Source of the DNA: an uncultured Verrucomicrobiae bacterium
Lineage (GTDB): Bacteria; Verrucomicrobiota; Verrucomicrobiia; Limisphaerales; Palsa-1400
DNA: 64,000 bases
Assembly (NCBI GenBank): GCA_963707025.1
Contig: CAVPOM010000009.1
Span: forward strand, 352,001 to 416,000
Direction: 5' to 3'
The notes under the pieces are model-generated. The model was not told the DNA's origin, made no database searches, and saw only the letters and a list, made by a program, of their open reading frames with translations. The position numbers were made by a program, and so were the translations under genes. How positions within the stretch are numbered: position 1 is the stretch's first letter; every line of letters starts with the position of its first letter. Below, one piece after another: positions 1 through 43,501 of the stretch.

Positions 1-407
1 TTGCCGTCGGCGCCGTACAAGGGGGTTTGAATCAACACGCCGCCTTGCAGGCTCTTGGCGTCGCCCATGGAAGAAACCACCACGTCCAGCCGGCTGCCAG
101 GTTTGGCAAAGGCGGGGATGTCCGCCGTGACCATCACCACCGCCACGTTTTTGGCCGAGAGGGTGGTAATCGGCACGGTCAGCCCGTAGCGTTGCAGAAG
201 GTTGGCCAGGGTTTGCAGCGTGTCAATCGGGTTCATATCGCCGTCGCCGGCCAGCCCGGTCACCAGTCCGAAGCCGGACAACTGGTTGTCCCGCGCGCCG
301 GAGATCATGGCGATGTCCTTGATGCGCGAACCGGCCGCCGCGGCGGAGCCGGCCAAGGCCAGCCACGCGCCCAGCAACAAGACGTAACAACAAAAGGCGC
401 GGCGCAT
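1..407 (-). CDS. flgI: Flagellar P-ring protein FlgI (5' part; runs off window)
   Basis: Manual translation from ATG at 407: signal peptide, then [31 protein letters not shown]...[38 protein letters not shown], the FlgI signature; directly downstream of flgH. Confidence 0.95.
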
Positions 408-33989: not shown

Positions 33990-35306
33990 GTGAAAAATAG
34001 TAGGACACAAAACAGCACGGTAGAACGAGCAGAACCGGACAGCGAGCACCACTGCTCGCCGGTTCTGCGGTCGAATGTGGTGCCAACTGGCCCGGCGGAA
34101 GGGCCGGGGGCGGAGCGGCCCTTCAGGGCCGCCCGCCCCGGCCTTCCCCTTCCTTGTCTATCCGTAACAACTGCAACGGATGAGAATGAAGCCCCTCTGC
34201 CTGGCCTTTTGAAAAAGCAGATGGAAGCCTGGACACAAAACATAAAATGGATGGCAGAGACGTTCGGAGCGGAGCGCCTCGCCTTCCAAACATTGACGGT
34301 GGGAGACTTGGACTGCGGCGGGCGGTATCGCAACCTGAGGGACAGAAAAGAGGCACAGAGACGGTTGCACTCGCTGATGGCGGGCGTCATTGCGAAGCGT
34401 TACCAGTGCGGCGGCACAATCACCGAGAGGCACAACAACGGCGGCATTCACTTCCACCTGGCGATGGTCTGCAAAACCGACATTCGAGGCCAGATTGATT
34501 TCGACGCCTGCTTTCCACCGAAAGACGGCCGGGGCAAGTATGTCCGCCCACCGGATTACTCGACGGCAAACCGGGCTTTGCGGGAGGAATGGGCCTTCTG
34601 GCGGCGAACTGCGAAACTCTACGGCTTCGGTCGCTGCCAGATGCAACCCGTCAAAAGCACCGGGGAAGCGGTGGGCCGATACCTGGCGGGCTACATGATG
34701 AAAGATCACGGCACCAGGTTGCCGGAGGATAAAGGCGCCCGGTGTGTGCGGATGTTCGGACACTGGCACAAAGCAGCCCGCAAGCCAGGACAGCGGGCGA
34801 TAAAGCCGCCGTTCAATTCACGGATGGGCTGGAACACGGTGCCGGCGCGGGTGTGGCGCGAGATCGTCAAGCAGATCGTGACCGTCCTCAATTTCAAGGG
34901 CGCAAAGATCACGGAGCAAAACATCAAGGAGGTGATTGGGCCGAAATGGGCCTGGCGCATTGCCAAGCTGTGTCCGTTCGTCTGGTTCGTGGACGATGAT
35001 TGGCAGAAGCCAGACTTATGGGATGGCGTGCTGATGCACAACCGGGAAGTGGCTGCGGCGCATGTGGCCGCGTTTGGCGAGACGGAGCGGGCGTGCTGGT
35101 GGCACGTTACCGAATTGACATTGGAACACCTGCGCGGCTGGACGCCCTTGCAAAAGCTGCTGTCCGAGGTGCAGTGGGATTTCTGGAAAGGAGGTGAGCA
35201 AAATGGAAGTATGGCGAATAACAAAAGGCGGCGTTCTCGACGAGTGCATGATCGAGTTTCGGCAACTGACGGATGGGAACGTCCGGTGGTTGTGGCCGAT
35301 GCGTAA
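33990..35306 (+). CDS. Rolling-circle replication initiator (HUH endonuclease Rep)
   Basis: Motif I FQTLT, motif II ERHNNGGIHFHL, GFGR, motif III RYLAGYMMK (two Tyr); true start may be downstream (e.g. 34221). Confidence 0.8.
   Translation: MKNSRTQNSTVERAEPDSEHHCSPVLRSNVVPTGPAEGPGAERPFRAARPGLPLPCLSVTTATDENEAPLPGLLKKQMEAWTQNIKWMAETFGAERLAFQTLTVGDLDCGGRYRNLRDRKEAQRRLHSLMAGVIAKRYQCGGTITERHNNGGIHFHLAMVCKTDIRGQIDFDACFPPKDGRGKYVRPPDYSTANRALREEWAFWRRTAKLYGFGRCQMQPVKSTGEAVGRYLAGYMMKDHGTRLPEDKGARCVRMFGHWHKAARKPGQRAIKPPFNSRMGWNTVPARVWREIVKQIVTVLNFKGAKITEQNIKEVIGPKWAWRIAKLCPFVWFVDDDWQKPDLWDGVLMHNREVAAAHVAAFGETERACWWHVTELTLEHLRGWTPLQKLLSEVQWDFWKGGEQNGSMANNKRRRSRRVHDRVSATDGWERPVVVADA
34097..34160 (+). 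other. Long GC hairpin followed by CTTG, candidate double-strand origin
   Basis: GGAAGGGCCGGGGGCGGAGCGGCCC-TTCA-GGGCCGCCCGCCCCGGCCTTCC then CCTTCCTTGTCTA. Confidence 0.5.
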
Positions 35307-35445: not shown

Positions 35446-36262
35446 TTGCTTTGGCATCGCGGAATTGGGCAAAGTAGAAAGCCAAAGAGGCGCTAGAGAA
35501 GATCACGGGGCACGCTGAATTTCTGTCCCTCTCCTCCATTACGGACACGCGCCTTTACTTCCCGGTTTCCTTCGGCGTTATTTGCTCCTTCAACCTGAGG
35601 ACTTCATCCATCGTAGCGGCACATTCCTTGCGATTGCTTTCATATTCCTCCGCATCCGCTGTTTCTTTGAACAGAATTTGTTTTGTGGCGGGAACATAAT
35701 CCCATTGGCCCCATGTTGACTCGAGAAACGTGACCGCCTTCAATAGAGCCTCAGCCCGACGTACGTCCGCTTGGCGTAAAACGATTATCTGCGGATTTTT
35801 CTCAGAAATCGATTTCAAAAAATCGTTTAGCAACCTTTCTCGTCCCTTCGGGGAGAGTTGCTGCTGCATCAACTCCTGCCGGTAAACCTCCGATGGATTT
35901 TCCGAAAACTCCCGAAACGCGTCGCACGCTGCAATGAACTCGCGGACTTTCTGTTCCCGGTCTTTCAATTCCTCCCTGTTTTTCACCGCAGCCATTTCCA
36001 GGAGTGGGGGATTGGTCAACTCTGCCGCAGAGGATTCATACCGACTTTGGAATTTTTTGACCTGCGAGGTAAAACCGACATTCACTGCCTTAAGCTTCGC
36101 TTCAAATTTCTGCTCATCAGACGCCTCTTGCTGTTTCTGCTTTGCCGTTAATTCTGAAACATATATACCGAAGCCGGTTAGACAGAGCGCTACGCACAAA
36201 AGCAGTCCGTCGAGCACCATGCCGATTAATACCCGTCCAAGAATGCCCTTGCGGCCTTCAAC

Positions 36263-37739
36263 TGAGGTGGACCCCATCCTTTAGACCACGGAGCGCGGAG
36301 AATAAGATAGACTCTGGAGGTCCGCTGTCATTTGTATTTTTGTTTGTCTGTTGTTCATTCCGCGCTTCCAAACCCTTTCGAAAAGAGAGAACGAGCCGCG
36401 CCTGGCACCGCCCGTCCTCCCTCTCCGTTTTCTTAGGGTTTCCAACCTTACCGCCGCAGGCGGTCTGATTTCAAGTTTTTCCGGCCTGCCGAGCCCTCCT
36501 TGGGCTGCATCGCTTCCCATCGGGCCGGTTGGGTTCCGTAGGCCCCGGGATCAGAATACACGGCCGCGGGCGTCGCATAGTGCAAAGCCGCGTGCGGACG
36601 CAACCGGTTGTAATCCTCAAACCAGCGCGCCAGCCCGCGCCCGGCCTCGATCCCGTCCAGGTAATCTTGCAGATATATGTCCTCATGCTTGACGCTCCGC
36701 CACAACCGCTCGATAAACCGGTTGTCCATCCACCGCCCCCGGCCATCCATGCTCACGTCCACCCCCGCCGATTCCACCGCGTTGATATACAGCGGCGAAG
36801 TGAACTGCGACCCCTGGTCGGTGTTGGCGATCAGCGGGGCCTTCCGCCCGCTCTGCAGCGCCGCTTCCCAGGCGTCCACGCAGAAGGCGCTCTCCAACGT
36901 GTTGCTCAAGCGCCACGCCAGCACATACCGGCTCCACCAATCCATCACCGCCACCAGATACATAAACCCCTGTGCCATCGGCACATAGGTGATGTCCGCG
37001 CACCAAGCCTGATCGGGCCCGGTGATCTCCAACTCGCCCAACAGATACGGATAGATCTGATGGCCCGGCCCCGGCAGGCTGGTCCGGGGTTTGCGGTAGA
37101 TGGCCTCGATGCCCATGACCCGCAACAGCCGCACCACCCGCTTGCGATTGACTTCCCAGCCCTCCCGGCCCAACAGCACCCGCAACTTGCGGCTGCCATA
37201 GACCGGATGGTCCAAGTGCAACTGGTCCAAACGCCGCATCAGCGCCAGATTCTCCGGCGTCTCGGGGCACGGTTGGTAATAGTAACTGCTCCGGCATAAA
37301 TCCAGCAGGTCGCACTGATGCCGCACGCTCACCTGCGCATCCGGGCCGACCAACTCCGCCAGGCTCTTTAAAGGCCCAGTTGTTTGGATTTTTTTTTCAG
37401 CCAGTCCAGGTCCACCGTCAACTGCCCGATCTTCTGGTGCAATTGCCCGATCAACTCCTCCTGGTCTGCGCTGCCCGCATGCCCCGCCTCAAACAGGTCG
37501 GGCAACCGGTCGCGAATCGTCGCTTTCCATTGCGTGACCTGGGTCGGATGCACCGCGTACTCTCGCGCCAGCTGCGCGACCGTCTTAAGCCCCACCAGGG
37601 CTTCGAATCCCACTTTGGCCTTGAAGGCCGCACTGTGCCGCTTCCGTTTTGTTTTCATCAGTCTGCTTTCTCTCATTTCCAGCAGACCAACAAAAGTCTA
37701 TCTTCTTCAGCAGTGGTCTAGTTTTTGGGGACCCCCTCA
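36263..37739 (-). mobile_element. IS3-family element, complete (1477 bp)
   Basis: TG..CA ends; IRL TGAGGGGGTCCCCAAAAACTAGACCAC / IRR TGAGGTGGACCCCATCCTTTAGACCAC; AAC target duplication; orfA/orfB. Confidence 0.95.
36448..37658 (-). CDS. IS3 transposase OrfAB (-1 frameshift)
   Basis: orfA 37368-37658 (HTH, DWLKKKS), A9 slippery run at 37389-37397, orfB in the -1 frame with WCADITY, NTDQGSQF, DN..IERLWRSVK.E DDE motifs. Confidence 0.93.
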
Positions 37740-38128: not shown

Positions 38129-38599
38129 CGGTGGATGGACAACCGGTTTATCGAGCGGTTGTGGCGGAGCGTCAAGCATGAGGACATATATCTGCAAGAT
38201 TACCTGGACGGGATCGAGGCCGGGCGCGGGCTGGCGCGCTGGTTTGAGGATTACAACCGGTTGCGTCCGCACGCGGCTTTGCACTATGCGACGCCCGCGG
38301 CCGTGTATTCTGATCCCGGGGCCTACGGAGCCCAACCGGCCCGATGGGAAGCGATGCAGCCCAAGGAGGGCTGGCTGGCCGGAAAAACTTGAAATCAGAC
38401 CGCCTGCGGCGGTAAGGTTGGAAACCCTAAGAAAACGGAGAGGGAGGACGGGCGGTGCCAGGCGCGGCTCGTTCTCTCTTTCGAAAGGGTTTGGAAGCGC
38501 GGAATGAACAACAGACAAACAAAAATACAAATGACAGCGGACCTCCAGAGTCTATCTTATTCTCCGCGCTCCGTGGTCTAAAGGATGGGGTCCACCTCA
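38129..38599 (+). mobile_element. Truncated IS3 copy (3' end with IRR), inverted relative to 36263-37739
   Basis: Nearly identical to the right end of the first copy from RWMDNRFIER onward; ends GGGGTCCACCTCA. Confidence 0.92.
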
Positions 38600-39239
38600 G
38601 GTAGTCCTGCATGTCCCCCACGGTGACGATGCCCGCCTGGCCCAGTGTCTGTTCGGTGACTTTGCCGACCCCGTAAATCACCCGCACTGGCAGCGGCCGC
38701 AAAAATGAAACCTTCTCATGTTCAGAAATGATCGTCAGACCGTCAGGCTTTTTGTGGTCGCTGGCGATTTTGGCCAGCAGTTTGTTGGAGGCAATGCCGA
38801 TGGTGGCGGTCAACTGGCGCTCAGACAGAATCCGCTGTTTCAAATGTTGTGCCAACCGCATTGCCTTGAGCAGCGACGCATCGCTGTCCTCCGCCTGACT
38901 GAGGGCGGACGCGTCGAGATACGCCTCGTCAATAGACATGGGCTCCACGACTGCTCCGGTTTGGGCGACAATCCGCATGATTTGCCGTGATTCCCCCCGG
39001 TAATGATCCATTCGCGGACGCACGAAAATGCCATTGGGACAAAGCCGCCCCGCTGTGGCGCTGGGCATGGCGGAGCGGACCCCAAACTTGCGCGCCTCAT
39101 AACTGGCGGCACACACCACCCCGCGTTGGGTCGGGGGCGCGCCGACGATCACCGGCCGGCCTCGCAGACCCGGGTCGTCGCGCTGTTCCACGGAGGCGAA
39201 AAACGCGTCCATGTCCAAATGGAGGATGACGCGAAACAC
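38600..39239 (-). pseudogene. dinB: DNA polymerase IV (DinB), C-terminally truncated at the IS end
   Basis: ILHLDMDAFFASVEQRD, ASYEARKFGVRSAMP, SIDEAYLD, KLLAKIASD.KKPDG, IYGVGK; cut at TVGDMQ, little-finger domain missing. Confidence 0.93.
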
Positions 39240-40952: not shown

Positions 40953-42446
40953 TGAGCTGGACCCCTATTTTTAGACCACAGGTAAGTTTCGATTTTTGCC
41001 GGTTTGCTGTAGATAAGAAAGAGCAGACTTATGAAAGCAAAACGGAAAAGACACAGTGCGGCCTTCAAGGCCAAAGTGGGATTCGAAGCCCTGGTGGGGC
41101 TGAAGACGGTCGCGCAATTGGCGCGAGAGTATGCGGTGCATCCGGCGCAGGTCACGCAGTGGCGGGCGACGATTCGGGATCACATGCCCGAATTGTTTGA
41201 GCCCGGGCAACCCCGCACGGAGGATCAGGAACAGTTGATTGCCCAACTGCATGAGAAGATTGGCCAACTGACGGTGGACTTGGACTGGCTTAAAAAAAAG
41301 TCCAGGCAACTGGGGCTTTAACATGTTTAATCGCTCCCGATCCGCAGCTCAGCGTGCGGCGCCAGTGCGAGCTGCTGGCGGTGTGCCGTGGCAGTTATTA
41401 TTACCAGTGCTGTCCGGAGACAGAGGAGAACCTGGCGCTGATGCGGCGGTTGGACCAGATGCATTTGGACCACCCGGTTTATGGCAGCCGCAAACTGACC
41501 GTGCTGTTGCGCCGGGAGGGTTTGACCATCAATCGCAAACGGGTGGTGCGGCTGCTGCGGTTGATGGGGATCGAGGCGATTTACGCCAAGCCCAAGACGA
41601 GTCTGCGGGAGATGGGGCACCAGATTTATCCGTATCTGTTACGCAATTTGGCAGTGACGGGACCGGATCAGGTTTGGTGTTCGGACATTACGTATGTGCC
41701 TATGGCAACTGGGTTTATGTATTTGGTGGCGGTGATGGATTGGTGGAGTCGTTACGTGCTGGGATGGCGCTTGAGCAACACGTTGGAGGCGGACTTTTGT
41801 GTGGACGCTTGGGAGGCGGCGTTGCGGGCGGGGCGTCAGGCGCCGTTGATTTCCAATACCGACCAGGGATCGCAGTTCACCTCCCCGATGTTTATCGATG
41901 CGGTGGAATCGGCGGGGGTGGACGTGAGCATGGACGGACGGGGTCGCTGGATGGACAACCGGTTTATCGAGCGGCTGTGGCGGAGCGCCAAGTATGAGGA
42001 CATTTATTTGCAAGACTATGGCGACGGGTTGGCGGCAGGGCGCGGACTGGGCCGGTGGTTTGACGGCTACAACCGGGAACGACCGCACCAGGCGTTGGGC
42101 TATGCGACGCCGGCGGACGCGTATTTTGATCCCGGCACGCATGGAGCCCAACCGGCCAAATGGGAAGCGATGCAACCTGCCAGAGGCAGGAGCGATCGCA
42201 GCACTTGACAGAGAGGCAGGCGGCAGGAAAAGGCTTGAAATCAGACCGCCTGCGGCGGTAGAGTTGAGAACCCTAAGAAAACGGAGAGGGAGGACGGGCA
42301 GTGCTCCGCATCGCTCGTTCTCTCTTTTCGAAAGGGTTTTGAAACACGGAATGAACAGTAGTCAACTACAATTAGTAATGACAGCAATCGGCAAAAGTCG
42401 CGCTTATTTCATGCGCTCCGTGGTCTAAAGGATGGGGTCCACCTCA
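40953..42446 (+). mobile_element. IS3-family element, complete, diverged isoform (1494 bp)
   Basis: IRL TGAGCTGGACCCCTATTTTTAGACCAC, IRR as in copy 1, AAA target duplication. Confidence 0.95.
41031..42208 (+). CDS. IS3 transposase OrfAB (-1 frameshift)
   Basis: orfA 41031-41321, A8G slippery site, orfB DDE motifs WCSDITY/NTDQGSQF/IERLWRS. Confidence 0.93.
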
Positions 42447-43501
42447 AAACTGTGGGGACGCAAGCCAGCGGCAGGGGATTCCAATGAGCGGTTCTGCGGC
42501 GCGTATAAGTTGTTCCACCCGAACGGCAGTTTCATGCCCCACGACAAATGTCCGATGGCCGATGTATTGCAGGGCAAGGTAACGGCGGTGCAGAACGCGG
42601 AAGTGGTCATCGAGCGGCAGGACGGCTCACGGATTACCGCGCTAGTGGATATCCATCCACTGAAGGACAAAAGAGGACAAATCACTGGAGCAATCAATTG
42701 CTTTTACGACATCACTCAGCAAAAGCAGGCTGAAAGGAGGATGCAGATGTTTACTCAAGAAATCGTCGCGGCGCGAGAGGAAGAAAGGAGACGGGTGTCG
42801 GCCGTTTTGCACCACGACGTTGGTTCGTTGGCGGTGGGGATCTCAGCCTATCTTGACGTGATCGAAGATGATGTTCGCTCCGGGAAACCCGGAGGCGCGC
42901 TTAAGTCAATTAATCGGACGCGGAAGGCCTTCGACAAGTCGGTCGCGCGCCTGAAGCGGTTGGCCATTGAAATTCGGCCGACCGAACTTGATCTCCTCGG
43001 ACTCAGCGCCGCCTTGAGGCAACATTGCTCTCGGATTACAAAGCACAGGCGAACCCGGATTCGTTTCAACGAGACACTGCCATGCTCCCGATACCAGCAA
43101 ACGCCGCCACGATCCTGTTCCGGGTTGCGCAGGAAGCGATGACCAATGCCATCAAGCATGGTCACGCGAAGCTTGTGGACGTGGCCCTCAGAACATCGAA
43201 CGAAGAAATTAGTCTGACAATTCGTGATAATGGAAAGGGATTCGATCCGACGGAACAAAGGAGGCGGGAAACGTCCCATTTGGGCCTCCGCATCATGAGG
43301 GAAATGGCAGTTTCCGCCGGAGGCACATTCACCGTTGACTCCGGGCGAGGGAAAGGAACCACGGTGCGTCTGGGCCTGCCAGCCCAAACAGCGGGTTTGG
43401 AGTTGACCGAATCCGCCGTGCAGAAAGAAACGATAGCGCGAGGAAGGGCGCTCTGTTTCACCGGCCGAGGTTCGCGGACGCAGAAAGGCGGGCGCGCATG
43501 A
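42447..43501 (+). pseudogene. PAS-HisKA_3 (NarX/UhpB-type) kinase, 3' part; additional frameshift near 43090
   Basis: LWGRKP..ERFCG..CPMA..GAINCFYDIT PAS; EEERRRVSAVLHHDVG H-box; LFRVAQEAMTNAIKH, DNGKGFD, LGLRIMRE in the next frame. Confidence 0.82.

Follow-up and report, generated by a model that had tools for sequence, protein, structure and literature searches.

Background

IS3-family insertion sequences move via a circle in which the two ends are joined, and IS911 and IS2 then gain a strong promoter at the junction (available sections of PMC9330008 and PMC3299598). Complete outward promoters may also drive transposase from circles, according to section 4.4 of PMC9330008, and a leader hairpin over the transposase start is described for IS200 in the accessible part of PMC4513863. 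IS3 is among the commonest IS families, and it matters by what means those of its members that lack a clear junction promoter boost transposase for the second copy-out/paste-in step.

Here we examined an IS3 element in the window, a 64,000-nucleotide stretch of DNA. An initial annotation had reported a structured segment of about 120 nt inside three IS3 right ends, at 42234-42357, 36352-36475 and 38388-38510. All three copies were recovered at these positions, that at 36352-36475 on the minus strand. They amount to only two independent variants, however, as the A and B copies are 99% identical.

The IS3 element and its copies

40953..42446 (+): IS3-family element of 1494 bp (variant C), with a 3-bp duplication, AAA, on its flanks
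40953..40979 (+): left terminal inverted repeat, from the sequence
41031..41321 (+): orfA (HTH_Tnp_1), whose A8G slippery run (41292-41300) gives access to the -1 frame of orfB
41354..42208 (+): orfB (HTH_21, rve, rve_3; profile matches above cut-off)
42420..42446 (+): right terminal inverted repeat (IRR), from the sequence
36263..37739 (-): variant A, a complete element that also has the module, at 36352-36475; its orfB enters the promoter and stops in the -10 box
38129..38599 (+): partial variant A copy, right 470 bp, module at 38388-38510; abuts a truncated dinB

OrfB scores 244.7 bits against the IS3 model NF033516 (cut-off 160), and its rve, rve_3 and HTH_21 matches provide the integrase-like DDE core of the family. 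An HTH orfA lies upstream, and the -1 frame is open from 41294 into orfB. The ends have the TG...CA termini, the inverted repeats (27 bp) and the 3-4 bp duplication of IS3 elements. Variants A and C are 79% identical over the full elements. The genome contains 36 full copies of variant C and 8 of variant A, with a 3-bp target duplication at 30 of these 44, and 48 right ends in total; these numbers indicate recent activity. An IRR-IRL junction was seen at none of 47 exact right ends in the genome, and the circular intermediate is assumed from the family. Relatives fall almost entirely within Verrucomicrobiota, and the nearest named elements in a plasmid set are ISMch1-like (56.5% OrfB identity) and ISAba14-like (49.2%).

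Several features of the surrounding DNA were also recorded. The partial copy truncates dinB (DNA polymerase IV; 38600-39239, minus strand) at roughly residue 213, and a paralogue with 87% identity lies on contig C8. In both full copies an ATG within the right terminal repeat (MGSTS...) opens a frame into the downstream DNA, of 236 and 240 codons (42432-43142, plus strand, and 35555-36277, minus strand); the frame of copy C points towards a pair of sensor-kinase-like and response-regulator genes. A rolling-circle Rep-like gene at 33990-35306 (plus strand; HFH motif, PF23343 below cut-off) has paralogues on C4, C6, C9 and C12 and a vapBC-like pair directly upstream, and the gene and the pair together probably represent a small mobile element that has integrated. 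In genome G000, about ten tRNA genes form an array at C2:106545-112086 and about ten another at C8:72468-81731; both arrays are likely to lie on mobile elements.

Conservation and distribution of the module

The segment is indeed better kept than its flanks. Four sub-segments are 85-94% identical between copies C and A, as against 48-60% for the orfB tail and the spacer before the module, 57% for the linker that follows and 81% for the core of orfB. The change in the apical stem with pairing retained, the replacement of an outer A-U by G-U and the different orfB stop in each copy were likewise found as the initial annotation had described them.

A metagenome motif scan returned at least 119 pattern matches, of which 114 were judged true modules and five chance; the chance matches (L138, L140, L178, L205 and L208) were left out, and three of them remain inside the counts of 129 modules and 115 orfB genes used below. 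Three rows (L043, L110 and L139) were left out as truncated or error-rich. Among the 119 matches listed, orfB lies directly upstream in 105, and the listed matches together with the genome loci gave 100 representatives at less than 93% identity. Viral contigs contained no pattern match. The Rfam search that had been proposed returned no family at the gathering threshold in the window, the best weak match being mir-483 (24.8 vs 60 bits). A covariance model run over 150 further genomes of the phylum found a single match, in a decayed IS3 element; the module is therefore narrow among the genomes searched and not a general host RNA.

Some modules occur apart from an intact element. Those without a transposase are L004:1514-1641, L009:57-185, L015:1500-1570, L159, L166 and G000 C4:871014-871223, and in L004, L009 and L015 a frame of about 500 codons begins within about 50 bases of the hairpin, which suggests that the module has been domesticated there as a promoter-leader. 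A decayed element, L224, retains promoter and hairpin without the linker and the anti-leader (see below). In L043 a second IS3 copy is inserted into the hairpin, in L011 an IRR immediately precedes a module, and in L094 an IS3 relative lies inside a CRISPR-like repeat array.

A predicted promoter and a long hairpin

42235..42264 (+): predicted outward sigma70-type promoter; -35 TTGAAA at 42235-40, 18-nt spacer, -10 TAGAGT at 42259-64
42245..42259 (no strand assigned): palindrome, 6 bp with a 3-nt loop, within the spacer of the promoter; possibly an operator, or a small hairpin
42282..42330 (+): long G-U-rich RNA hairpin with purine 5' arm, pyrimidine 3' arm and variable apex; predicted 5' end of the right-end transcript
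42331..42380 (+): A-rich linker; median 49 nt and 45% A in 88 homologues among the matches listed

The 5' third of the module is probably a sigma70-type promoter, as predicted from its boxes. TTGAAA-18-TAGAGT is the sole sigma70-like site that a scan found in the element, and with 0.8 expected by chance it does not by itself exceed chance; the copies in the window read TTGAAA-18-TAGAGT or TAAGGT. TTG, which was absent from the search pattern, stands at the -35 place in 94-97% of the 129 modules among the matches listed, and is retained in 41 of the 44 listed homologues whose orfB stop lies upstream. Host tRNA genes carry the comparable arrangement TTG-16..18-TAnnnT 19 times in 79 regions vs 2.9 expected. 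The -10 box is mediocre, with the last T present in 40% of the modules listed and the first two bases fixed by the search pattern. A promoter match of at least 8/12 occurs in only 23 of 42 elements, and the strict rule holds in 7 of the 42.

This arrangement alters the place of the small hairpin that had been described at the start of the segment. The hairpin exists, but as a palindrome between the -35 and -10 boxes; being promoter spacer, it precedes the predicted transcription start, which would fall at the foot of the long hairpin. Among homologues the palindrome shows one two-sided change (L074) and wobble changes (L075), and it is absent from L049, L050 and L082. A MerR-type operator seems less likely; the spacer here is 18 nt, and MerR promoter spacers are 19-20 nt. 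A second copy of the small palindrome, with a longer loop, is present in the orfA leader of L115, L122 and L169, where it is followed by TAGA, 18 nt behind a TTG-type hexamer.

The long stem was also confirmed as a helix, but in another register than the interrupted Watson-Crick one first proposed: in the best fold the helix runs without interruption over 18 bp, five of them G-U pairs (42282-42299/42313-42330), and is topped by an apical stem. The outer AACCCT/AGGGTT stem fared less well, being paired, per position, in only 41-75 of 93-97 homologues among the matches listed. On the sense strand the three copies fold with z = -4.7, -3.7 and -4.0 (none of 200 shuffles as stable), and on the antisense strand the two that were folded reach -1.8 and -1.7. 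The same asymmetry holds among the matches listed, with the sense strand more stable in 99 of the 100 representatives (median z -4.1 vs -1.1). The listed hairpins comprise 23 sequence types at less than 75% identity, and in 97 representatives they have 14-22 pairs (median 20, with 5 G-U). An alignment-free comparison of the matches listed gave -27 kcal/mol for each hairpin's own arms vs -20 for swapped arms, and their sequence-only alignment contains 476 G-U cells vs 62 A-C cells.

Covariation, which the initial annotation had put forward as a check, gave a divided answer. No column pair reached E<0.05 in the sequence-only alignment, in which the repetitive purine and pyrimidine runs slip in register. 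In the alignment fitted to a covariance model, 97.7% of helix cells are paired and 8 of 15 pairs change on both sides; a tree-based substitution-shuffle null gave a mean pairing of 87.1% and a maximum of 94.6% in 60 simulations, and with the tree null the two best covarying pairs both lie in the helix (E<0.001 and E 0.10). Since the fitted alignment leans towards its own structure, we gave more weight to the alignment-free tests. We conclude that the long hairpin is very probably a selected RNA structure. The earlier suggestion of a cis-regulatory or small RNA is thus supported as far as RNA structure goes, but it had overlooked the promoter-like 5' third and the right end complementary to the leader.

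Three smaller points concern the hairpin and the bases around it. One T is missing from the T-run of the 3' arm in 19 of the 47 copies, through homopolymer sequencing error or slippage. The pyrimidine 3' arm looks like an anti-Shine-Dalgarno sequence that might pair with the purine loop of the orfA leader, but the arm is locked in the helix and of low complexity. A small ORF after the hairpin (MNS.../MNN...) was rejected, as it is not kept in homologues.

Pairing between the two ends

40983..41010 (+): left inner repeat, complementary to 42381-42406; comprises the TAAG block and the leader as far as the start-site hairpin's 5' arm
41002..41028 (+): leader hairpin with arms at 41002-41008 (5') and 41022-41028 (3'); by prediction it hides the start region of orfA
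42381..42406 (+): right inner repeat (the anti-leader), about 26 nt; complementary to 40983-41010

The orfA start region appears to be closed by a leader hairpin with a predicted opening energy of about 10 kcal/mol, and the TAAG block upstream of it is a candidate -10 for the element's own weak promoter. Compensatory variants of the leader hairpin were found in L010, L049, L050, L064, L065 and L115; tested as a column pair, the hairpin was not significant. The anti-leader and both arms of the leader hairpin change together between clades (for example in L010, L049, L050 and L115). About 85% of the aligned columns are complementary between anti-leader and leader. In 42 elements (L043 and L049 left out, their right end being mis-called), pairing with an element's own partner is worth -33 kcal/mol vs -22 with the partners of other elements. 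Read on the sense strand, mismatches between left and right in these 42 are of the G-U type 72 times and of the A-C type 25 times, vs 67:48 in the terminal repeat.

A model of circle-specific expression

These features can be joined in a model, to which we assign a probability of roughly 0.45, in which transposase expression is made specific to the circle with the aid of an RNA switch. RNA polymerase would start about 7 nt past the -10 box, and the long hairpin would cap the 5' end of the right-end RNA and likely stabilise it, while its G-U content would prevent a stable DNA cruciform. In an integrated element the right-end transcript would exit via IRR into host DNA, and transposase messages from the left end would keep their start site folded away. 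After copy-out circle formation, the transcript would cross the IRR-IRL junction, and the anti-leader would take the 5' arm of the leader hairpin and so uncover the orfA/orfAB start site. The result would be a burst of transposase from circles only, replacing the junction promoter of the IS911/IS2 kind. Taken separately, a role of the module in circle expression has about an even chance of being right; an RNA switch that senses the circle, which depends on the folding calculations, is a more tentative proposal. On a wider and about equally tentative view, the whole ISMch1/ISAba14-like group of IS3 elements, from Verrucomicrobia to Proteobacteria, may sense circularisation via RNA, with a right end that would anti-sequester the transposase start, and the Verrucomicrobial branch would have added the promoter and the 5' hairpin in place of a junction promoter.

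Opening of the start site was modelled for 42 elements, 37 of them with the module. The median cost was 3.4 kcal/mol in the circle transcript, compared with 10.6 in the read-through transcript, 9.5 in that from the own promoter and 9.8 with the anti-leader shuffled; the circle transcript was the lower in 42/42, 40/42 and 41/42 elements, respectively. Distant members of the group moved in the same direction in 13 of 17 cases, and seven elements of other IS3 groups showed only a small shift relative to the shuffled control. The drop does not show selection at the RNA level, since any inverted repeat overlapping the leader arm gives it, and in variant A the single best fold of the circle transcript still keeps the leader hairpin. 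A strict junction promoter (-35 in IRR, -10 in IRL, 16-18 nt apart, with five filler trinucleotides) was found at 0 of the 42 modelled junctions; weak matches of 8-9/12 appeared in a few elements and depended on the filler.

Alternative explanations

The strongest competing account, which we nevertheless consider unlikely, takes the inner repeat for nothing more than a DNA site bound by OrfA/OrfAB and the module for an outward promoter that is portable and has a stabilising 5' hairpin, driving host neighbours or circle transcripts without any switch. Of 31 non-redundant elements, 26 have the inner repeat at a fixed offset of 9 nt, and the top covarying left/right pair (E 0.017) belongs to the TAAG block rather than to the leader arm; both fit a transposase DNA site, and the consulted portion of PMC3299598 places inner protein-binding blocks in the ends of IS911 and IS2. 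A portable promoter would agree with the modules that stand, without transposase or IRR, ahead of long frames in L004, L009 and L015 (hairpin only), and with the outward promoters that the available text of PMC12095673 describes as common in IS3 ends. A DNA site explains less well why the match, which is also present in compact relatives without the module, extends to the end of the leader-hairpin arm and tracks its changes in distant elements. Nor does it predict the ratio of G-U-type to A-C-type mismatches in the 31 non-redundant elements, 36:11 as compared with 59:44 for the terminal repeats. Split by group, it stands at 24:8 for near elements, 12:3 for distant ones and 6:6 for other IS3 groups; against the composition limit P is 0.04 for the distant group and 0.2 for the near group, where the bias is not significant because base composition can by itself produce a ratio of as much as 2:1. 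Another eleven elements had ends that automatic calling did not pick up; they stand outside these counts and were judged by eye. The DNA-site and RNA-switch roles of the inner repeat are not mutually exclusive.

It is improbable, though a precedent exists in IS10 and IS200 (PMC4513863, in part), that the module instead makes a discrete small RNA acting in trans as copy-number control, like RNA-OUT or art200, or forms a terminator or RNase III site on the transposase message. The stable hairpin, A-rich linker and seed have the anatomy of an sRNA, the 3' arm is rich in U, and 47 right-end copies are present in one genome. However, the terminator scan does not call the hairpin, whose pyrimidine arm alternates U and C, with the U-run broken by C in all types, and is paired in the full fold; the hairpin was accordingly rejected as an intrinsic terminator, and a second terminator ahead of IRR is absent. 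Pairing in trans is predicted to be weak, at a median of -5.4 kcal/mol and with a more open start site in 20 of 37, and this speaks for action in cis. In 4 of 24 metatranscriptome runs (small shares), contigs of relatives covered the whole element, without a junction or a stand-alone small RNA signal, and they speak neither for nor against any of these readings.

A third reading, that the slot after the orfB stop holds a priming or single-strand-origin signal for copy-out replication, here as structured ssDNA or primer RNA, seems quite improbable for this element. In its favour stand related IS3 elements whose slot is filled by different structured inserts. These are hairpins, near-perfect and for the most part strand-symmetric, that have CCCC-N3-GGGG tips or GCTTCGC loops; in several cases promoter-like boxes of weak match come next, as does the same A-rich linker (L048, L052, L053, L056-L058, L061, L063-L065, L072, L089, L091, L092, L094-L099, L264, L280 and L281). 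These hairpins may resemble single-strand origin motifs, and with their weak promoter matches they are left unexplained by the circle-switch model. Compact relatives have no insert in the slot, and as sister elements use unrelated hairpins, the long hairpin is not essential to the group. The loop of the small palindrome reads GNA on the bottom strand in 97 of the 129 modules listed, but a single inherited sequence dominates this count; triloops of the GNA type are stable in DNA. The long hairpin itself is weak as DNA (z -2.1 on the top strand and -1.4 on the bottom), with a median energy among the matches listed of -10 kcal/mol vs -30 as RNA, which also speaks against the ssDNA structure that the initial annotation had offered as one possibility.

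A guide or cofactor of the DDE transposase, on the pattern of the IS110 bridge/seek RNA, is highly improbable. The RNA does come from a non-coding region at a constant place and has a variable apical loop, but at the 30 insertion sites that have 3-bp duplications the palindromic preference is no more than weak, and a 7-mer is shared with the RNA at 12 of the 30 vs 7.7 +/- 2.3 for random sites. A cofactor of the IS110 or IS200/605 type is thus unsupported, with no target match.

Retention of the segment for a protein, either the LEIRPP frame proposed as an ancestral OrfB tail or OrfB itself, is effectively refuted: among the matches listed the frame is open across the first 114 nt in 78 of 99 homologues and orfB enters the promoter to stop inside the -10 box in 12 of 115, but in 101 of the 115 the orfB stop falls at the -35 box or ahead of it (at least 18 bases ahead of the palindrome in 55, at the TGA inside TTGAAA in 46), the frame has no third-position bias (variability per codon position 0.21/0.23/0.18, vs 0.20/0.16/0.38 in orfB), 44 of 58 module deletions are not multiples of three and the distance from module to right end is spread over all three frames (34/30/15). 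By these sequence measures, the segment is not coding.

Comparison with known systems

If the model of circle-specific expression is true, extended inner repeats would be RNA switches besides, or instead of, protein sites, amounting to a topology sensor based on base pairing that could be reused as a circle- or recombination-triggered expression device. Even without a switch, the module is an uncatalogued structured RNA and portable promoter with dozens of copies in one genome and with remnants ahead of host genes in relatives.

Several described systems share parts of this arrangement. With the junction promoters of IS911 and IS2 (PMC9330008 and PMC3299598, as far as available) the element shares the -1 frameshift and the 3-bp duplications, and the copy-out circle and the circle-only rise in transposase, steps that are only proposed here. 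It differs in that the whole predicted promoter lies about 210 bp inside the right end, with a strict junction promoter at 0 of 42 junctions, and in that the circle-specific step would be translational, via RNA pairing of the two ends. Outward promoters at IS ends (PMC9330008; PMC12095673) also have -35 and -10 boxes near IRR, can read into neighbours and have been proposed to act in circles; here, however, the promoter is followed by a conserved 20-pair hairpin, a linker and an anti-leader, a structured leader not described in the available parts of those sources.

IS10 RNA-OUT and IS200 art200 are likewise IS-encoded RNAs complementary to a transposase 5' leader, whose start site lies in a leader hairpin in IS200. 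In the part of PMC4513863 available they are cis-antisense repressors from the left end, on the opposite strand and perfectly complementary, whereas the right-end RNA is on the sense strand, at the other end, only partly complementary and predicted to activate in cis after circularisation. The bridge/seek RNA of IS110/IS1111 is also a structured RNA from a non-coding region adjoining the transposase gene, but it serves a DEDD recombinase through target-matching loops (PMC11187229, in part), unlike the DDE OrfAB here, where no target match was found. Closest of all, ISMch1- and ISAba14-like IS3 elements share the terminal repeat, the TAAG block at a 9-nt offset and a right inner repeat that matches the leader; they are compact, with about 60 bp after the orfB stop, and have no promoter-hairpin module. 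In the available portions of open-licence full text in PubMed Central and bioRxiv (ISfinder and subscription reviews being outside that scope), we found no description of the hairpin RNA or of pairing between an IS3 right end and the leader. IS3 elements with an outward promoter and IS-encoded regulatory RNAs are known kinds of system; the predicted right-end RNA and its proposed pairing with the leader would add to them.
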